DNA of 64,000 bases, taken from assembly GCA_050329835.1 (NCBI GenBank), contig JBHJOJ010000022.1, forward strand, positions 14,502 to 78,501. The letters are read 5' to 3'. Origin of the DNA: Kineosporiaceae bacterium (GTDB lineage Bacteria; Actinomycetota; Actinomycetes; Actinomycetales; JBBAYJ01). A model generated the notes under the pieces. That model had not been told where the DNA came from and searched no databases. It was given only the letters and a program-made list of their open reading frames with translations. Shown here piece after piece: positions 4,793-44,364 of the stretch; the stretch's first letter is position 1, and every line of letters starts with the position of its first letter. A program made the translations under genes and the position numbers.

Positions 4793-5996
4793 GGGCCCAT
4801 GTATAGCCGGACCGGACGATGCGGACGGGTCGGTCGGCGAGTTCCGCCGGCCGAGCCGTCCGGGCGTCCGGTCCGTCCGGCCCGTCCGGTTCGCCCGAAC
4901 CGCCGCTGGGTTCCGACTTGTCGTCGAGGTCGTCGTCGAGGTCGTCGTCGAGCAGCTCGTGGCGCTCCGGGTCGAGGAGCACCTCCTCGCCGTGCTCGCC
5001 GATGGGCCCGACCCCGTGACCCCGGGCCACGTCCGCCAGGTCGCGCCAGATCCCGCGGGGGTCCCGGGGCGGCGGCGGGTAGGACTGCAACTCCGTGAGC
5101 AGGGCGACGGCGGTGCGGGTGCCGTCGATCCGGGCCTGGCGGTGGCGCGCCTCGGCGATCCGGGTGGTGTCGATCCGGGTGGTGTCGATCCGGGCGGTGT
5201 CGATCCGGGCGGTGCCGAGGGGGACAGGGTCGGGAGCGTCGGCCGGCAGGACCGCGCCCCCGCAGCTGCGGCAGCCCCCGGCCGGGGCGGCAGCCCGGTC
5301 GAGGCGCGCCAGCAGGCCCACAGTCGCCTCCACGAGCCCCCGGGCCTGCGAGCCGCGTCGCCGTCCCGCCACCAGGAGCTCGACCACCAGGTCCAGCGTG
5401 GGAGGGCTCACGGTGGCGGCGGGGACGCGGTGGGCGAACTGGGCGGCGACCGCGACCGGATCCACCGGGGCGGACGTGCCCGTCGCGCCGCCCAGCGCTC
5501 CCGCCAGCGACCCGAGGACCTCCCGCAGTCTCGCGTCCAGGTCCGGATCGGCGGCGAGCCCGGCCCCGAGCCGCACGTAGAACGGCACCGGGCGCGGGGC
5601 CAGGGCGAGCACCCAGGCGACGTCGGGGCGTCCGGAGCCGGCGGCGGCCGCCGCCGTGGCGCCCAGCACCCGGTCCGCGAGTCGGGCGACGGCGGCGGCT
5701 GTGACCAGGGGTTCGGCGAGGGCCGCGGTCACCTCGTCCGGCTGGGGCCAGGCCGCGAGGTCCAGGGCGGCGGCCGCTGCGGCGGCGGGCACCCCGAGCC
5801 CTGTGCGGTCCAGCGAGCGGGACAGCCGGTCGCGGTCGGCGGGGGTGGCGGCGGGGGCGCCCGCGACGTGGTCGAGCAGCTCCGGCACCGGCAGCGACGT
5901 GAGGTCCGGGGCCGGCGCCGCCGGGCCGGCGCCGGCCGCGGGCCCGTCCCCTTCGGCGAGGAACTCGAGGAGGTCGCCCGTCTCGGCACGCAGCAC
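4734..5996 (-). CDS. Hypothetical Ala/Asp-rich repeat protein upstream of the Hsp70-like gene
   Basis: 420 aa with a GTG start and high GC3. Overlaps the Hsp70-like ORF. Contains in-frame repeats (TARID x4, DDDL x2-3, GPDGPD). No domain recognised. Confidence 0.55.
   Translation of the reverse strand: MLRAETGDLLEFLAEGDGPAAGAGPAAPAPDLTSLPVPELLDHVAGAPAATPADRDRLSRSLDRTGLGVPAAAAAAALDLAAWPQPDEVTAALAEPLVTAAAVARLADRVLGATAAAAAGSGRPDVAWVLALAPRPVPFYVRLGAGLAADPDLDARLREVLGSLAGALGGATGTSAPVDPVAVAAQFAHRVPAATVSPPTLDLVVELLVAGRRRGSQARGLVEATVGLLARLDRAAAPAGGCRSCGGAVLPADAPDPVPLGTARIDTARIDTTRIDTTRIAEARHRQARIDGTRTAVALLTELQSYPPPPRDPRGIWRDLADVARGHGVGPIGEHGEEVLLDPERHELLDDDLDDDLDDKSEPSGGSGEPDGPDGPDARTARPAELADRPVRIVRSGYTWAHGEEVVVLQRALVRLVNRG
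5157..5216. repeat. 15-bp tandem repeat x4 (gatccggg[t/c]ggtg[t/c]c) inside the CDS
   Basis: Four consecutive 15-nt units read directly from the sequence. They encode TARID/TTRID on the minus strand. Confidence 0.9.
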
Positions 5997-6296
5997 GCGA
6001 TGCAGCGTAGGCGGCGCACCCGACCGCTGTCGGTACGCCGCCGGGGTCCGATCGGCGCGGCCGTGACGGTCTTCCCCGGCAGCGGCGGAGACGCCTGTCC
6101 ACTTCGTGGACGTTCCTCACGTAATGTCTGGAAGTACACGCAGAAAGTGACCGTTCGACTGGTGCATACCGGCCGCGGAGGGCTTAGCGTCGTCCTCGCC
6201 CCCGCGCTCCGCCCCGCGGGTTCCGCCGACGGCGACGGTTCTCGCGGGGCGGGCGGGGGCGCCAGACACCTCCCGTGCGGCCCGACCGCGATCGCG

Positions 6297-6460
6297 TCAG
6301 TCCCACCAGAGACCGACGACCTCTCCCGGTGGCGAGACCTCCAGCAGGGTGGTGCCGCCAGCCCGGGCCGCCAGCCACCGCGCGGGCGGCTGGGCGTTCC
6401 AGCAGCCCGGCCAGGGTCGCCCCGCCGCCGTCGGTCACGACCGACAGCCTCGCACCGGCC
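6297..6460 (-). pseudogene. Possible frameshifted remnant paralogous to the 6824..7321 ORF
   Basis: A short frame ends ...TTLLEVSPPGEVVGLWWD*, mirroring the C-terminus ...RISRGELVGLWWP* of the neighbouring ORF. The upstream coding-like stretch (ARLSVVTDGGGATLAGLLE) is in a different frame, and no start codon is present. Confidence 0.3.
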
Positions 6461-6530
6461 CGCACCGGCCCGGCCCGGCCCGGCCCGCGGTCCGCCGGCC
6501 ACGAGGGATCCCGGCCCCGGGTCCGGCCGG

Positions 6531-6710
6531 TCAGCCGATCCGCAGGTCGATGCCGAGGAACAGCAGCGGCCACAGCAGGATCGCCAGCACTGCGGATCCC
6601 ACGGAGGCCAGCAGGTCGGACGTGACGTAGCCCCGCACGATGGCCATCACGACGCCCACCACGAGCCAGAGGGCAAGTCCGAGGGAGATGCCCCGCCGCC
6701 GCTTGAACAT
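6531..6710 (-). CDS. Small two-helix membrane protein (59 aa)
   Basis: ATG at 6710 preceded by AGGAGG at the proper spacing. Sequence MFKRRRGISLGLALWLVVGVVMAIV...LAILLWPLLFLGI. The rest of the listed 200-aa ORF lacks support. Confidence 0.6.
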   Translation of the reverse strand: MFKRRRGISLGLALWLVVGVVMAIVRGYVTSDLLASVGSAVLAILLWPLLFLGIDLRIG

Positions 6711-6823
6711 GTCCGGTCCTCCTGTCGATGAGGCGGCCGGTCGCCCACCACGCCGTGGATGCGTCGTGACGCCGGTGCGGGGAGGAGTCTGGCGCGAACG
6801 GACGATCAGGGCATCCCGGCGGA

Positions 6824-7321
6824 TCACGGCCACCACAACCCCACCAGCTCCCCCCGGGAGATCCGCCCGGCCAGGGCGCGCCCCGGTCCCTTCCACGTGA
6901 CGTCGGGCGACTCGCCCGAGTCGTACACCTCGCCGATCGCGGTGCCGAGGGCGCCGGGGTCGCCGGGGGATCCGTCGTCCGGGTCCCGCCACCCGGCGGA
7001 GACCACACGCAGCAGGTCGTGGCGGCGGGCACGTCGCACCACGAGTCCGTCCACCCGCAGGAGCCCGGGCCCGTGCTCGGTCACGAAACCCGCGAGCCGC
7101 CCCCCGAGCCGATCCGCGACGCCGACCAGCCACCGGGGCGGCGGTCGCCCGTCCGGCGGGCGCCGCGGGAGCTCCGCCTCCGACAGGGTGAGGGCACAGG
7201 CGACGACCCCGGGCGGGGCGTCGTGGAACCGCCAGCCCGCCTGGGCGGCCCCCGGCGGGGGGCGCCCGGGCGGGGCCGTCGGCCGCCGGTACGGGGCGAG
7301 AAGGCGAGCCGCGGGTGTCAT
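6824..7321 (-). CDS. Hypothetical protein
   Basis: 165 aa with uniformly high GC3 across the frame. No recognisable domain and no clear SD. Confidence 0.5.
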   Translation of the reverse strand: MTPAARLLAPYRRPTAPPGRPPPGAAQAGWRFHDAPPGVVACALTLSEAELPRRPPDGRPPPRWLVGVADRLGGRLAGFVTEHGPGLLRVDGLVVRRARRHDLLRVVSAGWRDPDDGSPGDPGALGTAIGEVYDSGESPDVTWKGPGRALAGRISRGELVGLWWP

Positions 7322-38256: not shown

Positions 38257-38419
38257 CGGAGGCTATCGGTCCGCCGGCCGCCGGCCGCCGGCCGCGGGGC
38301 GTCGAGCCGCGGTCGTCCACAGTGCCGGCCGGGGCCGCCCGTCCACAGGTGCGCCGCCCGGAGCTGCCCGGCCCGCTTCCTCGGCGGCAGGGTCGTCGTC
38401 ATGACGCGGAGAGCGACGG

Positions 38420-38977: not shown

Positions 38978-41124
38978 CGGCGGCCGCGCCGACCGTCACC
39001 GTCCCCGATCTCACGCTCGCCGACGACGCCCGTGACGTCCTGCGGCGCCTCACCGACCGGGCCGACGCCGACTTCCGGCCGGACCAGCTGGAGGCGATCG
39101 AGGCGCTGCTGCTCCGGGGCGAACGGGTGCTCGTCGTCCAGCGGACGGGGTGGGGCAAGTCCGCGGTGTACTTCGTCGCCACCGCGCTGCTGCGGCGGGC
39201 GGGAGCGGGACCCACGATCATCGTGTCGCCGCTGCTGTCGCTCATGCGGAACCAGATCGACTCCGCGGCGCGGCCGGGCGTCCGGGCCCACACCGTCAAC
39301 TCCGGCAACGTCACCGAGTGGGACGAGGTCCGGGAGCTGCTGGCCGCCGGCGACGTCGACGTCCTGCTGGTCAGCCCCGAGCGACTCAACAACCCGCAGT
39401 TCCGCGAGACCTGGCTGCCCGCCCTCGCGGACACCACCGGGCTGCTGGTCGTCGACGAGGCCCACTGCGTGTCGGACTGGGGCCACGACTTCCGGCCGGA
39501 CTACCGTCGGGTGCGCGACCTGCTGGCCCGGCTGCGTCCGGGCACGCCGGTGCTCGCCACCACGGCGACGGCCAACGCCCGGGTCGTCACCGACGTCGGC
39601 GAGCAGCTGGCGGCCGGCGGGCGGGAGGTGCTCACCCTGCGCGGGCCGCTGGCCCGGGACTCGCTGCGGCTCGGCGTCCTGGCCCTGCCGGAGCCCGACC
39701 GGGTGCCCTGGCTGGCCGAGCACCTCGGCGACCTGACGAGCTCCGGGATCGTCTACACGCTGACCGTCGCCCAGGCTGAGGACACCGCCGAGGCGCTGCG
39801 CGCCGCCGGGCACGAGGTGCGGGCATACACCGGCCGCCAGGACGGCGACGAGCGGGTCGAGGCGGAGCGGGCGCTGCTCGAGAACCGGGTGAAGGCGCTC
39901 GTGGCGACGTCCGCGCTGGGCATGGGGTTCGACAAGCCGGACCTGGGCTTCGTGGTCCACCTCGGGGCGCCGAACTCGCCCATCGCCTACTACCAGCAGG
40001 TGGGCCGGGCCGGACGTGCCGTCGAGAGCGCCGACGTCCTGCTGCTGCCCGGGTCGCAGGACCGGGCCATCTGGGACTGGTTCGCCTCCCTCGCCTTCCC
40101 GGGCCCCGGCGTGGTGTCCCGGGTGCTGGCCGTCCTCGGGGACTCGACCCGCCCGCTGTCCACCCCTGCGCTCGAACCGCTCGTCGACCTCCGGCGGTCC
40201 CGGCTCGAGCTGCTGCTCAAGGTGCTCGACGTGGACGGCGCGGTCCGCCGCGTCGCGGGCGGATGGGAGGCCACCGGCCGCCCGTGGAGCTACGACGAGC
40301 CGCGTTACGCCCGGGTCGCCGAGGCCCGCACCGCCGAGGCCGCGGCGATGCTGGCGTATGCGGTCCCCGCGGACCGCGCGCCCGGCTGCCGGATGCGGTT
40401 CCTGCGGGAGCGGCTCGACGACCCGTGGGCCGCGGACTGCCGGCGCTGCGACGTCTGCGCCGGCCCGTGGTACCCGGCGGCGGTGTCGGCGGCGGCGAGG
40501 CGGGCCGTGGCCCGGGTGGTCGACCGGCCCGGCGTGGTGGTCGAGGCCAGGACCTCGTGGCCGACTGGGATGGACCGGGTCGGGGTGCCGGTGAGGGGCC
40601 GGATCGCCGAGGGCGAACGGACGAGCGACGGGCGTGCCGTCGCGCGGCTGTCCGATCTCGGGTGGGGGTCCCGGCTGCGCGGGCTGCTGGCCGACGGGGC
40701 GCCCGACGCCCCCGTCGGCGACGACCTCTTCCGTGCCGTGGCCACGGTCCTGCGGGAGTGGCAGTGGGCGGAGCGTCCGGTCGCGGTGGCGGCCGTCCCG
40801 TCCCGGCGGCGTCCCGTGCTGGTGGCGTCTCTCGCCGAGCGGCTGGCGGCGGCCGGCGGCCTGGAGTACCTGGGACCGCTCGAACTCCGTCACGGCGGAC
40901 CGGCGGGCGGGTCCGGCGGCAACAGCGCGACCCGACTGGCCGGCGTCTGGGAGCGGGTCGCCGTCCCCGGACCGACGGCGGCGCGGCTGCCGGCCCTGGC
41001 CGGCCCGGTCCTGCTCGTCGACGACCTCGTCGACTCCCGCTGGACGCTGACCGTCGCGGGGCGTGAACTCCGGCTGGCCGGCGCGGACGCCGTGCTCCCG
41101 TTCGCCCTGGCGGCGGCCGGGTGA
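38974..41124 (+). CDS. recQ: RecQ-family DNA helicase with a PRTase-like C-terminal module
   Basis: QRTGWGKSAVY (Walker A), VVDEAHCVSDWGHDFRPDY (DEAH), TATA and ATSALGMGFDKPD motifs. C-terminal VLLVDDLVDSRWTLTVAGRELRLAGADAV resembles a ComF/PRT fold. Confidence 0.85.
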   Translation: MTAAAPTVTVPDLTLADDARDVLRRLTDRADADFRPDQLEAIEALLLRGERVLVVQRTGWGKSAVYFVATALLRRAGAGPTIIVSPLLSLMRNQIDSAARPGVRAHTVNSGNVTEWDEVRELLAAGDVDVLLVSPERLNNPQFRETWLPALADTTGLLVVDEAHCVSDWGHDFRPDYRRVRDLLARLRPGTPVLATTATANARVVTDVGEQLAAGGREVLTLRGPLARDSLRLGVLALPEPDRVPWLAEHLGDLTSSGIVYTLTVAQAEDTAEALRAAGHEVRAYTGRQDGDERVEAERALLENRVKALVATSALGMGFDKPDLGFVVHLGAPNSPIAYYQQVGRAGRAVESADVLLLPGSQDRAIWDWFASLAFPGPGVVSRVLAVLGDSTRPLSTPALEPLVDLRRSRLELLLKVLDVDGAVRRVAGGWEATGRPWSYDEPRYARVAEARTAEAAAMLAYAVPADRAPGCRMRFLRERLDDPWAADCRRCDVCAGPWYPAAVSAAARRAVARVVDRPGVVVEARTSWPTGMDRVGVPVRGRIAEGERTSDGRAVARLSDLGWGSRLRGLLADGAPDAPVGDDLFRAVATVLREWQWAERPVAVAAVPSRRRPVLVASLAERLAAAGGLEYLGPLELRHGGPAGGSGGNSATRLAGVWERVAVPGPTAARLPALAGPVLLVDDLVDSRWTLTVAGRELRLAGADAVLPFALAAAG

Positions 41125-41142
41125 GGGGAGCAGGTCACCGTC

Positions 41143-41535
41143 GTGACCAGTCGCCTGACCGAGATCAGCGTCGACGCGCGGGATCCGCGCCGGCTCGCCG
41201 AGTTCTGGGCCGCCGTCCTCGACTACCGCATCCTCGACGAGCGTGAGGACGGCCTGGTGGAGATCGGCTCGTGGGAGCCGATGGTCGAGGCGCACCGCGC
41301 CGGGCCGCGGCCCCCGACGATCGTCTTCGCTCGGGTGCCCGAGGACAAGATCGTGAAGAACCGCCTGCACCTCGACGTCAGCCCGGTCGACGCCACGCGC
41401 GACGCCGAGGTGGACAGCCTGATCGCCCTGGGCGCACGCCGGATCGACGTCGGCCAGGGCGAGCAGAGCTGGGTCGTGCTCGCCGACCCCGGGGGCAACG
41501 AGTTCTGCGTGCTCCGGAGCCTCGCCGCGACGTAG
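41143..41535 (+). CDS. VOC/glyoxalase-like domain protein
   Basis: 130 aa: LTEISVDARDPRRLAEFWAAVLDY...KNRLHLDV...LADPGGNEFCV. Confidence 0.75.
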   Translation: MTSRLTEISVDARDPRRLAEFWAAVLDYRILDEREDGLVEIGSWEPMVEAHRAGPRPPTIVFARVPEDKIVKNRLHLDVSPVDATRDAEVDSLIALGARRIDVGQGEQSWVVLADPGGNEFCVLRSLAAT

Positions 41536-41581
41536 CCCCGGACGCCGCTGCGGGACCGCCGGACACGGCCCGCCGCCGGGC

Positions 41582-41612
41582 TTGCCCTGGAGCGCGCTCC
41601 AAGGCCGAGACT
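41582..41612 (+). promoter_or_regulatory. MerR-type promoter with dyad operator
   Basis: TTGCCC (-35), then a 19-nt spacer containing the perfect 14-bp palindrome TGGAGCGCGCTCCA (41588-41601), then GAGACT (-10). The ATG follows 6 nt after the -10, suggesting a leaderless transcript. Confidence 0.55.
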
Positions 41613-41618
41613 CCCGCC

Positions 41619-43001
41619 ATGGCAACGCTCACGATCGCCGAGGCCGCCGAGGCGGCCGGCACGAGCACCGACACGATCCGCTACTACGACCGCGAGGGCC
41701 TTCTTGCCGGGCTCGCCCGGGACACCGTCGGCAACCGCCGCTTCACCACCGACGACGTCGGCTGGCTGCGGGTGCTGCGGTGCCTGCGGGACACCGGGAT
41801 GACGATGGCGGACCTGCGCTCGTTCTGCGCGGTGGACGGCGAGGTCCGCCCCGCGGACCGGCTCGCCATGCTCGTGGCCCACCGGGACCGGGTGCTGGAT
41901 CGCATCCGCCGGACGCACGAGCAGCTCGCCGTCATCGACGGCAAGATCGAGGCCTACCGGATGTCCGCCGCCGGCACCAGGGCGCCCGAGGTGACCCCGG
42001 TGACCCCCGCGGCGACCGCGGCCCGCCGGCTCGGCCGCAGCGATCTCGCGACGTCCGCGCTCGGGGTCGGGACGTGGGTGCTCGGTGGGCCCTTCTCGAT
42101 GCAGGGCCGCCCGGTCGGGTGGGGCGAGGTCGACGACGAGGAGTCGGTCCGCGTGCTGCGCCGGGCCGTGGACCTCGGGGTCACCCTGGTCGACACCGCC
42201 GACGTCTACGGCACCGGTCACGCCGAGCGCATCGTCGCCCGCGCTCTCGGGGAGCGGCGCGACGACGTCGTCTACGCCACCAAGTGGGGCAACACCTACG
42301 ACGAGGACGCCCGCGAGCTCACCGGGAGCGATCCGACGCCGCAGTACGCCCGCCGGGCACTGGAGGCGTCGCTGCGCCGGCTCGGCACCGATCGGATCGA
42401 CGTCTGGCAGCTGCACCCCGGGGACCTCGATCCCGCGCTGGCCGACGACCTCGTGGCGCTGTGCGAGGACCTCGTCGACGAGGGGTCGATCCGGACCTAC
42501 GGCTGGAGCACCGACGACCCGGCCCGCGCGGCCCGGTTCGCCGCCGGACCCCGCTGCGCGCTGGTCCAGTGCACCCTCAACCTGTTCGAGCCCGCCCCGG
42601 CCATCCTCACCACCGCGCGTGACCACGACCTCGGCGTCCTCGCCCGCAGCCCCCTCGCCATGGGCCTGCTGAGCGACCGGGTGACCGCCGGCACCCGGCT
42701 CGCTCCGGGCGACGTCCGCCACACCAGCCCCGAGTGGCTGGCCTGGTTCCGGAACGGCCGGCCGACGCCCGAGTACCTGGCTCGCCGCGACGCGGTGCGC
42801 GACGTCCTCACCAGTGGCGGCCGCACCGTCGCCCAGGGCGCCCTCGCCTGGCTGTGGGCCCACGACGGGCGGATCGTCCCCATCCCCGGGTGCCGGACCG
42901 TCGCCCAGGCCGAGGAGAACGCCGGCGCCCTCGGGCACGGTCCGCTGACCCCGGAGCAGTACGCCGAGGTCGAGCGGCTCCTGGGCCGCGGAGCACCCTG
43001 A
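41619..43001 (+). CDS. MerR-family HTH domain fused to an aldo/keto reductase
   Basis: N-terminal TIAEAAEAAGTSTDTIRYYDREGLL plus a coiled-coil (~125 aa), a linker, then AKR motifs (LGVGTW, VTLVDTADVYGTGHAERIV, IDVWQLH, IPGCRT) in one uninterrupted frame. Confidence 0.8.
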   Translation: MATLTIAEAAEAAGTSTDTIRYYDREGLLAGLARDTVGNRRFTTDDVGWLRVLRCLRDTGMTMADLRSFCAVDGEVRPADRLAMLVAHRDRVLDRIRRTHEQLAVIDGKIEAYRMSAAGTRAPEVTPVTPAATAARRLGRSDLATSALGVGTWVLGGPFSMQGRPVGWGEVDDEESVRVLRRAVDLGVTLVDTADVYGTGHAERIVARALGERRDDVVYATKWGNTYDEDARELTGSDPTPQYARRALEASLRRLGTDRIDVWQLHPGDLDPALADDLVALCEDLVDEGSIRTYGWSTDDPARAARFAAGPRCALVQCTLNLFEPAPAILTTARDHDLGVLARSPLAMGLLSDRVTAGTRLAPGDVRHTSPEWLAWFRNGRPTPEYLARRDAVRDVLTSGGRTVAQGALAWLWAHDGRIVPIPGCRTVAQAEENAGALGHGPLTPEQYAEVERLLGRGAP

Positions 43002-43074
43002 CCGCTGGAGGTGTGTGCGGCCGGGATCCGGTGGGCGCGGACGCCCGGGTCGAGGTCGCCCTGGACGGCTACGG

Positions 43075-44364
43075 CTACCGGTGGCTGCGCGTCACCTGGG
43101 AGGGCAGCTGCCGGTCGTCCTGAGCGCCCGCCGCACCCGGGGCCGGCAGGCGGAGGACCAGTCGGGCGCCGGGGCCGTCCTCCCGGTTCGACGCCTGCAG
43201 GTCCCCTGACATCCGGCGGGCCAGGGCCCGGGAGATCGTGAGCCCGAGACCGGACCCGTCGCCGTCGTGGTGGTGGCGGGACGGGTCGCCCCGGTAGAGG
43301 CGGTCGAAGACGTGCGGGAGATGCTCGGGCGCGAACCCCTCGCCGGTGTCCGCGACGCTCAGCAGACCGTCCTCTCCGTCGGGGGAGACGGCGACGGTCA
43401 CAACGCCCCCGTCCGGCGTGTGCCGGAGGGCGTTGTCGAGGAGGTTGCCGACGATCTGGGCCAGCCGCGCCGGGTCGGCCAGCGCGGACACCGGTCCCGG
43501 GGCCGTCACGCCCAGCCGGACGCCGGCCCGCGTCGCCATCGGTCGGGCCGCCGCCACCGCGCGTTCCGCCTCCGCCGCCAGGTCGACGGGCACGGGATCC
43601 AGCGCCAGGGTCCGCTCCTCGGCCGCGGCCAGGACCTGGAGGTCCGTGACGAGCCGGCTCATCCGGTCCAGCTGCGAGCGGAGCGCGGCGAGGGTCCCGG
43701 CGTCGGGGTCCAGAACCCCGTCCTGCAACGCCTCGACCTGGGCGAGGAGCGTCGACAGGGGCGAGCGCAGCTCGTGGGCGAGGTCGTTCTGCTGCCGCCG
43801 CCGCTCGGTGTCCGCCTCCGCCAGGCGCCGGGCCATCTCCCGGAAGGACCCAGCCAGGTCGCGCGCCTCGGTGCCGAGCCGCGGGTCCGGGACGGCGACG
43901 TCGAACCGGCCGCGGGCGATCCGGTCGGCGGCCCGCGCCAGCTCCGAGAACGGCGACGCGAGCCGTCGGCTGGTGACGAGCGCGACCCCGGCCGCGGCCA
44001 GGGCGGACACCGCCAGGGCACTGGCCACCCCGATGAGCAGGGACGTCGCGAACGCCTCCCGGGCGTGGGCGAGCACGTGGGGATCGGTCTCCCCGGCGCG
44101 CCGCAGGTGCTCGTCGAACAGCGGGGGCGCCACCACCCACGTCACGACCACGACGGCCAGCACCGCCGCCGTCACCAGCCCGACGTCCGCGACGAGCAGC
44201 CGCGACCGCAGCCCGCCGCGCCCCCTCCCCCGGGTCTTCCGCCCATAACCGGTCCCAGAGCCGGTCCCGGGCCCCGTTATCCGCCCATAACCGGTCTCAG
44301 AGCCGGTCCCGGGCCCGGTTATCCGCCCATAACCGGGTGGGGGAGGGCGGGCAGGATCAGGCAT
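43075..44364 (-). CDS. Sensor histidine kinase
   Basis: TM-HAMP-DHp (H-box AHELRSPLS)-CA (NLLDNALRHT, DTGEGF, GSGLGLTIS). The ATG at 44364 overlaps the response-regulator stop. Confidence 0.85.
   Translation of the reverse strand: MPDPARPPPPGYGRITGPGTGSETGYGRITGPGTGSGTGYGRKTRGRGRGGLRSRLLVADVGLVTAAVLAVVVVTWVVAPPLFDEHLRRAGETDPHVLAHAREAFATSLLIGVASALAVSALAAAGVALVTSRRLASPFSELARAADRIARGRFDVAVPDPRLGTEARDLAGSFREMARRLAEADTERRRQQNDLAHELRSPLSTLLAQVEALQDGVLDPDAGTLAALRSQLDRMSRLVTDLQVLAAAEERTLALDPVPVDLAAEAERAVAAARPMATRAGVRLGVTAPGPVSALADPARLAQIVGNLLDNALRHTPDGGVVTVAVSPDGEDGLLSVADTGEGFAPEHLPHVFDRLYRGDPSRHHHDGDGSGLGLTISRALARRMSGDLQASNREDGPGARLVLRLPAPGAAGAQDDRQLPSQVTRSHR
44239..44337. repeat. 42-bp tandem repeat (2.3 copies) inside the kinase N-terminus
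   Basis: 44239-44280 and 44281-44322 differ at 2 positions, and a partial third unit follows. Each unit carries ATAACCGG...CCGGTTAT arms and encodes GYGRITGPGTGS(E/G)T. Confidence 0.85.

Follow-up and report, generated by a model that had tools for sequence, protein, structure and literature searches.

The window analysed here, a 64,000-nucleotide stretch of the genome of a Kineosporiaceae bacterium (contig JBHJOJ010000022.1), carries on its forward strand a reading frame in which a MerR-type regulator continues into an aldo/keto reductase (AKR). According to our comparison with related loci, this frame is very probably a standard, self-regulated merR-akr stress operon whose two genes have been joined by the insertion of a single base. 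The result is mainly a correction: an apparent regulator-enzyme chimera would resolve into an NmlR/AdhR-like merR-akr detoxification operon joined by one base. ORF analysis of the window showed one open reading frame (ORF) of 460 amino acids, from the ATG at 41619-41621 to the TGA at 42999-43001, uninterrupted by stops. The Pfam domain MerR_1 covers residues 5-68 (E 1.3e-15, 57.6 bits against a cutoff of 21.6) and Pfam MerR scores 38.2 bits (cutoff 28.2), while Aldo_ket_red (PF00248) covers residues 148-454 (E 2.5e-58, 197.9 bits, cutoff 24) and is matched over profile positions 2-289 of 291. The original prediction, made from the letters of this DNA, of a MerR domain and a full AKR in one continuous frame was therefore right, both Pfam domains being complete. 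A longer ORF starting at the GTG at 41271 was also considered and set aside: it runs into a Glyoxalase_6 gene, and the ATG at 41619 is favoured by the frame plot, by the promoter and by comparison with the relatives. Without the fourth C at 41995-41998 there would be no single ORF.

A homologue search with the 460-amino acid protein against a set of 5.8 billion proteins gave as best matches three unfused proteins (P0001-P0003) of 333 amino acids and 84-89% identity, which align only to the AKR, 72% of the query. All close relatives (AKR 68-89% identical) have a separate merR (127-135 amino acids) and akr (326-333 amino acids), overlapping by 1-4 bp. Loci L001-L004 show synteny with the window (MatE, Uma2, helicase, Glyoxalase_6, a MerR of 127 amino acids and an AKR of 333 amino acids), and the two lengths add up to that of the window protein (127+333=460). 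In L001, L002 and L004 merR and akr share the 4 bp GTGA (e.g. 5621-6004 and 6001-7002), as they also do in L116 and L120, which is the overlap familiar from translationally coupled ATGA/GTGA gene pairs. The split arrangement is also found in L116/L117, L120 and L121, in unrelated genomic contexts and with AKR identities down to 68%, and in each of the eight related loci where merR immediately precedes akr the two are separate genes. Furthermore, the MerR moiety of the window is 86-91% identical to the stand-alone 127-amino acid MerR of L001, L004 and L116. Because the split pair recurs across contexts down to 68% identity, two genes are, on this comparative evidence, the ancestral state, and the single ORF of the window is a tip event. 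A fusion junction common to the relatives was not found, the nearest ones, at 68-89% identity, being split; only two of the top 120 homologues are fused (49-56% identical), and their junctions are unlike that of the window. Among the GTDB representative genomes, which do not include the lineage of the window, identity reaches no more than 63%, and no merR lies near the AKR gene in 75 of the 80 loci.

The alignment of the junction (A1) reads GAGGTGACCCCGGTGACC in the window versus GAGGTGA-CCCGGTGACC in the relatives, and this gap is the sole indel in the aligned coding part. Its single gap column falls in the CCCC run at 41995-41998 (+ strand), 5 nt before the overlap, which is CCC in L001-L004. 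The codons of the relatives, CCC GAG GTG ACC CGG TGA, give P E V T R stop, with the AKR beginning at the GTG of GTGA, whereas those of the window are CCC GAG GTG ACC CCG GTG ACC, the extra C bringing the MerR frame into register with that of the AKR. The fused frame thus exists because one extra C lies just 5' of the GTGA stop/start overlap. A +1 insertion just upstream of such an overlap merges a gene pair into one ORF and is a textbook route to fusion. The ancestral ribosome-binding site, the GTG and the TGA are all intact in the window: the putative Shine-Dalgarno (SD) sequence of the ancestral akr, GAGG (41988-41991, + strand), conserved in L001, L004 and L116, now lies within the ORF, 8 nt before the GTG, and the GTGA at 42000-42003 (+ strand) holds both the ancestral akr start (42000-42002, now Val128) and the ancestral merR stop (42001-42003, now out of frame). 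Across the MerR/AKR junction the fused chain reads ...APEVTPVTPAATAAR.... A pair of neighbouring genes in different frames, which had been named beforehand as the observation that would overturn the fusion, is thus what the relatives have, and the window sequence itself reads continuously. In addition, a metagenome scan for the junction CCCGAGGTGACCC[N]GGTGACC gave 29 matching stretches, none of which was a merR-akr junction. Programmed frameshifting in the relatives was set aside as a candidate, the CCC in ACCCGG not being a slippery site and the GTGA overlap being one of ordinary coupling.

The MerR moiety (residues 1-126; 41619-41996, + strand) was delimited by Pfam, by its match to HiNmlR structures and by the helices of an AF2 model. 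Its best solved relatives are the HiNmlR structures 5e01, 5d8c and 5d90 (E 1.4e-21), which align through the dimerisation helix to residue 118, so that both a winged helix-turn-helix and the long C-terminal helix of the MerR family were recognised (Pfam, HiNmlR alignment, AF2) and a dimer is predicted. Cys55 (codon 41781-41783) and Cys70 (codon 41826-41828, both + strand) align to HiNmlR Cys54 and Cys71. HiNmlR, which has been called a "MerR regulator with no sensor region", detects formaldehyde stress via Cys54 and Cys71, of which Cys54 is conserved across the NmlR subfamily and essential for HiNmlR activation, and its counterpart is required in Bacillus subtilis AdhR (PMC5001606). In this regard, Cys55 is retained in every Actinobacterial relative of the window clade and also in the fused proteins P0012 and P0032, and the MerR of the relatives (127-135 amino acids) stops a little way past the dimerisation helix and has no sensor region at its C-terminus; the window chain runs on into the AKR via the extra C. 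The moiety resembles the NmlR/AdhR subfamily (HiNmlR, PDB 5D8C/5D90/5E01; B. subtilis AdhR/YraB; NmlR of N. gonorrhoeae and S. pneumoniae) in being, in its stand-alone relatives, a MerR of ~125-135 amino acids without C-terminal sensor region, in its pair of sensor cysteines, in the overlong promoter spacer with an inverted-repeat operator touching the -35 element, and in apparently controlling an aldehyde- or carbonyl-detoxifying oxidoreductase. It differs in that its target would be a downstream co-transcribed AKR and not a divergent or separate adhC/adhA, in that its promoter appears to be autoregulated, leaderless and of a high-G+C Actinobacterial type, and in that the regulator is fused to its target enzyme. 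It also differs from HiNmlR in the position of the dyad, which in the window lies mostly inside the spacer, whereas the HiNmlR operator contains the -35 elements of two overlapping promoters (PMC5001606).

Upstream of the ATG lies a promoter of the MerR type. The -35 hexamer TTGCCC (41582-41587, + strand) was read directly, with TTGAC[CT], TTGC[CGT][CT] or TTGTCC as its counterparts in the relatives; it is followed by a spacer of 19 nt (41588-41606) and by the -10 hexamer GAGACT (41607-41612, + strand), which fits nAnnnT, with A2 and T6 invariant in the relatives. TTGCCC-N19-GAGACT is thus found where it had been predicted, as is the perfect 14-bp palindrome TGGAGCGCGCTCCA in the spacer (41588-41601). 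The palindrome by itself is not beyond chance, since the 75% G+C window has 27 perfect ones against ~20 in shuffles, and the case for its function must therefore rest on comparison with other loci. It forms the core of a 20-bp operator dyad, CCCTGGAGCG|CGCTCCAAGG (41585-41604, without strand), in which nine of ten pairs match, which covers the last 3 nt of the -35 hexamer and whose centre (41594/41595) is ~3 bp off the middle of the spacer towards the -35. This dyad is the only site of the TnGAG/CTCnA half-site type in the window, and a degenerate operator motif showed no enrichment within the window. A consensus promoter and terminator scan of 41000-43400 was empty, as expected from a scan that permits only spacers of 16-18 nt when that of this promoter is 19.

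The comparison comprised 12 gapless promoters, that of the window included, of merR genes linked to window-type AKRs in Actinobacteria and Chloroflexi. They conform to CTTG-nn-yTnGAGyrCrCTCnAr-...-nAnnnT, with CTTG invariant and a 19-nt spacer in all 12. The half-sites covary (TGGAG/CTCCA, TAGAG/CTCTA, TCGAG/CTCGA) and the central four bases are symmetric as well (CGCG, TGCA). Symmetric positions of the dyad are complementary in 89% of cases versus 81% in shuffles, a value reached by none of 500 shuffles, while slid registers gave 12-46%; double changes at symmetric positions occur in 12 cells against 5.5 expected. The whole arrangement (-35, 19-nt spacer, dyad, nAnnnT -10 and ATG) recurs in 13 loci of different lineages, in 12 of which the ATG stands 6-7 nt behind the -10. 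Sequence comparison thus gives good support to a promoter of the MerR type whose spacer, overlong at 19 bp, holds the predicted operator dyad, and the earlier reading of the spacer as the mark of a MerR promoter is borne out by the conservation of spacer and dyad and by the symmetric covariation. Additionally, the ATG follows the -10 by 6 nt (41613-41618), the gene calls of the relatives begin at the homologous ATG, and a distance of 6-7 nt is kept in 10 of the 12 aligned promoters and also in L118 and L123, which are outside the alignment. This conserved spacing points to a conserved leaderless design, so that the transcript, as originally proposed, is almost certainly leaderless. The resulting operator/promoter model, CTTGnC yTnGAG yrCr CTCnAr with 19-bp spacer and leaderless ATG, spans Actinobacteria and Chloroflexi and should be usable for regulon mapping.

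The AKR moiety (residues 128-460; 42000-43001 with the stop codon, + strand) was recognised by Pfam, PDB matches and the barrel of the AF2 model. Its structure matches are PDB 3n2t, 1ynp and 1pz1 (E 4.8e-34 to 8.2e-28, ~30-40% identity), and the catalytic tetrad D192 (codon 42192-42194), Y197 (42207-42209), K222 (42282-42284) and H266 (42414-42416, all + strand) is invariant in the 25 sequences of alignment A3. It thus shares the full (alpha/beta)8 domain and the D-Y-K-H tetrad with the AKR11/13-like reductases (3N2T, a putative oxidoreductase; 1YNP; 1PZ1, 'General stress protein 69'), but at ~30-40% identity, and it falls below every NCBIfam equivalog cutoff (for methylglyoxal reductase YdjG, 92.6 bits versus 550), so that a substrate is not inferable from the family. 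In the AF2 model the dimerisation helix spans residues 78-117 with high pLDDT, residues 121-132 have a pLDDT below 50 and the barrel is confident from residue 136, which suggests an inter-domain linker of ~18 residues, predicted to be disordered. The linker of ~25 residues proposed earlier is correct in that the frame crosses it uninterrupted; it is not added sequence, being made up of the native MerR tail and the native AKR N-terminus.

From these elements the following course of events can be proposed. In the ancestral state, a leaderless mRNA would start at the merR ATG from the MerR-type promoter with its 19-bp spacer, and the pair would be translationally coupled through the overlap of the merR TGA with the akr GTG. 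In the window, ribosomes would read MerR(1-126)-Pro-Val-AKR as one chain of 460 amino acids, and since the old ribosome-binding site and the GTG at 42000 remain, free AKR may still arise by internal initiation. According to family knowledge, a MerR dimer would occupy the dyad, a thiol-reactive carbonyl or other electrophile would modify Cys55 (and Cys70), and the modified dimer would untwist the overlong spacer so that RNA polymerase fires. The leaderless transcript would then give the regulator plus, by coupling or from the internal SD, the reductase, and the induced AKR could reduce the offending aldehyde or ketone with NAD(P)H. Most likely, the MerR protein is its own sensor of electrophiles and turns on expression of the reductase.

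Several points weigh against this interpretation. Electrophile sensing is deduced from homology, and reactive carbonyls are candidates only as inducer and as AKR substrate. The NCBIfam NmlR equivalog NF041849 is not reached (69.6 bits versus a cutoff of 175), and for this reason the moiety is, by its sequence, named NmlR/AdhR-like and not NmlR. A fused MerR dimer would bear a 36-kDa domain on each C-terminus, which might impair it. As for the insertion, a change in homopolymer length is the commonest kind of sequencing error, and the finding was chosen for its fusion look, which is a matter of ascertainment. The other fused ORFs of the window AKR subfamily, P0012 and P0032 (56% and 49% identical to the window protein), come from short metagenome contigs (L005, 1805 bp; L006, 1681 bp) in which errors are plausible; in both, an SD, a start codon and the remains of an ATGA are still present inside the ORF.

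These last points bear on whether the extra C exists at all. It may be that the organism has CCC at 41995-41998 and produces a separate MerR (127 amino acids) and AKR (333 amino acids) with no fusion protein, as would fit a change that is a one-base difference in homopolymer length, the split state of all eight related loci with merR directly 5' of akr, and an SD, GTG and TGA that are perfectly intact, as if nothing had happened biologically. On the other side, the ~9 kb of neighbouring genes contain no further frame-breaking indel when compared with L002 and L004, and in a plot of third-position G+C content (GC3) by frame over the 64 kb each same-strand frame change coincides with a stop codon. 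Moreover, the 8.3-kb neighbourhood has 441 runs of three or more C or G, which gives a chance of about 1 in 441 for a random error to fall here; an error would therefore rarely strike the one run that fuses the genes, while selection would tolerate a real insertion there. The nearest relatives are 11-16% diverged, a distance at which real indels near gene ends are expected, and the 460-amino acid fused product is the deposited protein. An artefact is a serious possibility that we nevertheless regard as somewhat doubtful; judged from the assembled sequence alone, the extra C is rather probably a genuine recent mutation. If it is, every regulator molecule carries an AKR on a flexible tether. Automated annotation and tallies of domain architectures should be wary of tip-level fusions at ATGA/GTGA overlaps.

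Fusions of the two domains were also looked for in other proteins by a search with residues 1-210 against 1.84 billion representative proteins. Both Pfam domains are present in four of the best 150 matches (P0124, P0162, P0199 and P0223). A further search with P0162 recovered a coherent fused clade (P0273-P0281, P0284 and P0287) of 65-75% identity to P0162, on contigs of up to 449 kb. The P0162-type fusion is common to at least 12 clusters, one of them with 160 members, and because of this spread and of the length of the contigs it can be taken as old and maintained. The source names of this clade include 'aldo/keto reductase [uncultured Propionibacterium sp.]', 'MAG: aldo/keto reductase [Bifidobacterium sp.]' and, from JGI, 'oxidoreductase/DNA-binding transcriptional MerR regulator'. 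Like the window protein, these fusions have MerR_1 and Aldo_ket_red in one chain behind the same type of operator and promoter: in the P0162-type locus L123, positions 1103-1144 read CTTGTCCTGGAGCGCGCTCCAGCCCCTAGCCT, followed by 7 nt and the ATG, that is, the same operator and leaderless 19-bp-spacer promoter. They differ from it in belonging to another AKR subfamily (33-38% identity), in being old and maintained, in having a shorter linker (~7 residues in L123) and in having lost the cysteine, which in the stable fusions is replaced by Lys, Arg or Met. The architecture is uncommon, as had been thought, but it is not unique given the conserved P0162-type clade; on the sequences compared, it is rare and not new. 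The window locus itself is a further case of an NmlR/AdhR-like MerR apparently controlling a carbonyl reductase, with a one-base fusion of uncertain reality. A literature search found no experimental study of MerR-AKR fusion proteins, 'Merr' largely matching plant names. Several database proteins of these families, P0223, P0248 and P0125, are visibly frameshifted or chimeric, with an Arg/Pro-rich out-of-frame tail, an out-of-frame N-terminus and two joined partial AKRs, respectively; it appears that indels, whether artefacts or mutations, often occur in such high-G+C sequences.

These conserved fusions bear on the idea, put forward in the original prediction, that the AKR is the evolved effector domain of the regulator, a one-component sensor in which the barrel would bind or turn over the effector and couple carbonyl turnover directly to transcription. 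MerR proteins with large C-terminal ligand domains do exist, such as BmrR and TipAL (family knowledge; PMC5001606), and MerR-AKR fusions are conserved in another AKR lineage (P0162, P0273-P0281) with the same operator type (L123); as these P0162-type proteins lack the sensor cysteine, the idea may hold for them. For the window protein it is most improbable. Its fusion goes back to one base and is not shared by the relatives that are 84-89% identical, its regulator keeps its own cysteine sensor, its linker is the unmodified MerR tail plus AKR N-terminus, predicted to be disordered, and where the genes are split, as in the relatives, the AKR is clearly a product under the control of the regulator. 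With close relatives encoding two proteins, one extra C explaining the fusion and the sensor cysteines retained, the effector-domain claim is not supported here, and the AKR is, on comparison of these loci, the regulated output and not an evolved sensor domain. In the cysteine-less fusions P0162, P0273-P0281, P0199 and P0124 the AKR domain might truly act as the sensor of a MerR, and it is this stably fused, cysteine-less clade, not the window, in which the AKR-as-sensor idea should be tested.

A genuine insertion might also be harmful. The tethered 36-kDa barrels on the antiparallel coiled coil could cripple DNA distortion or dimerisation and leave the operon locked, either repressed or weakly constitutive, as a first step of regulator decay. 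The locus is indeed evolutionarily unstable: the merR of L118 and L119 is a 12-codon remnant behind an intact promoter/operator, the MerR of L117 has 94 instead of 127 amino acids, and most genomes with a window-type AKR have no adjacent merR (75 of 80 loci). Nevertheless, stable fusions with even shorter linkers persist across their clade, so that a MerR with an AKR at its C-terminus can still work, and the linker modelled as disordered should decouple the two domains. We therefore hold a damaging insertion to be improbable. Only slightly less improbable is a different outcome of a genuine extra C, in which the 460-amino acid protein would be both DNA-bound regulator and enzyme and the window would represent the first step of a transition that became fixed in the conserved fusion clades, where the AKR may be a signal-receiving domain gated by substrate or NADPH occupancy. 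The states of this locus form a natural series (two separate genes, a fusion, loss of the regulator, and a stable fusion without the sensor cysteine) that illustrates how a regulator and an enzyme come to be fused.

Several other variations of the locus were observed. In L118 (2143-2220), as in L119, where the AKR is 75% identical, merR is reduced to the 12-codon ORF MHTTMSISEVDR*, in which the N- and C-terminal ends of MerR and the ATGA overlap with akr are kept. The promoter/operator of L118 is intact (CTTGTCCTGGAGTGCACTCCAGGACGGAGACT, 6 nt, ATG), leaving the operator without a cis-encoded regulator. L117 (466-750) and L116 (2121-2504), from different samples, have an identical promoter and junction and the same AKR, with the MerR called as 94 versus 127 amino acids, and the merR of L117 resembles an in-frame internal deletion in one population. 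The Chloroflexi loci L017, L024, L027, L037 and L041 have the same type of merR promoter and a merR without sensor cysteine (confirmed in L017 and L024), which lies 270-820 nt from the AKR gene with no overlap, the AKR having its own strong SD (AAGGAGA).

Upstream of the promoter, the window carries a Glyoxalase_6 (VOC-fold) gene (41143-41535, + strand), given here as context only, which ends 46 nt before the -35, is syntenic in the closest relatives and is absent from L116, L120 and L121. In L118 (1895-2085), repeats of a TCGATCGATCGACGATC-like unit, which the window lacks, fill the stretch from Glyoxalase_6 to the merR promoter. Just past the AKR stop, at 42986-43120 (+ strand, frame 2), the window retains 45 residues from the C-terminus of a gene of the alpha-amylase family, a remnant that shares 60% identity with the end of its L004 counterpart. 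Beyond akr there appears to be an indel hotspot, with genes for a luciferase-like monooxygenase and an amylase in L004 and L118 and DoxX in L001/L002. Lastly, L001/L002 carry a DUF6364/PIN toxin-antitoxin-like pair between MatE and Uma2 (1700-2427), which is absent from the window (38257-38419) and from L004.

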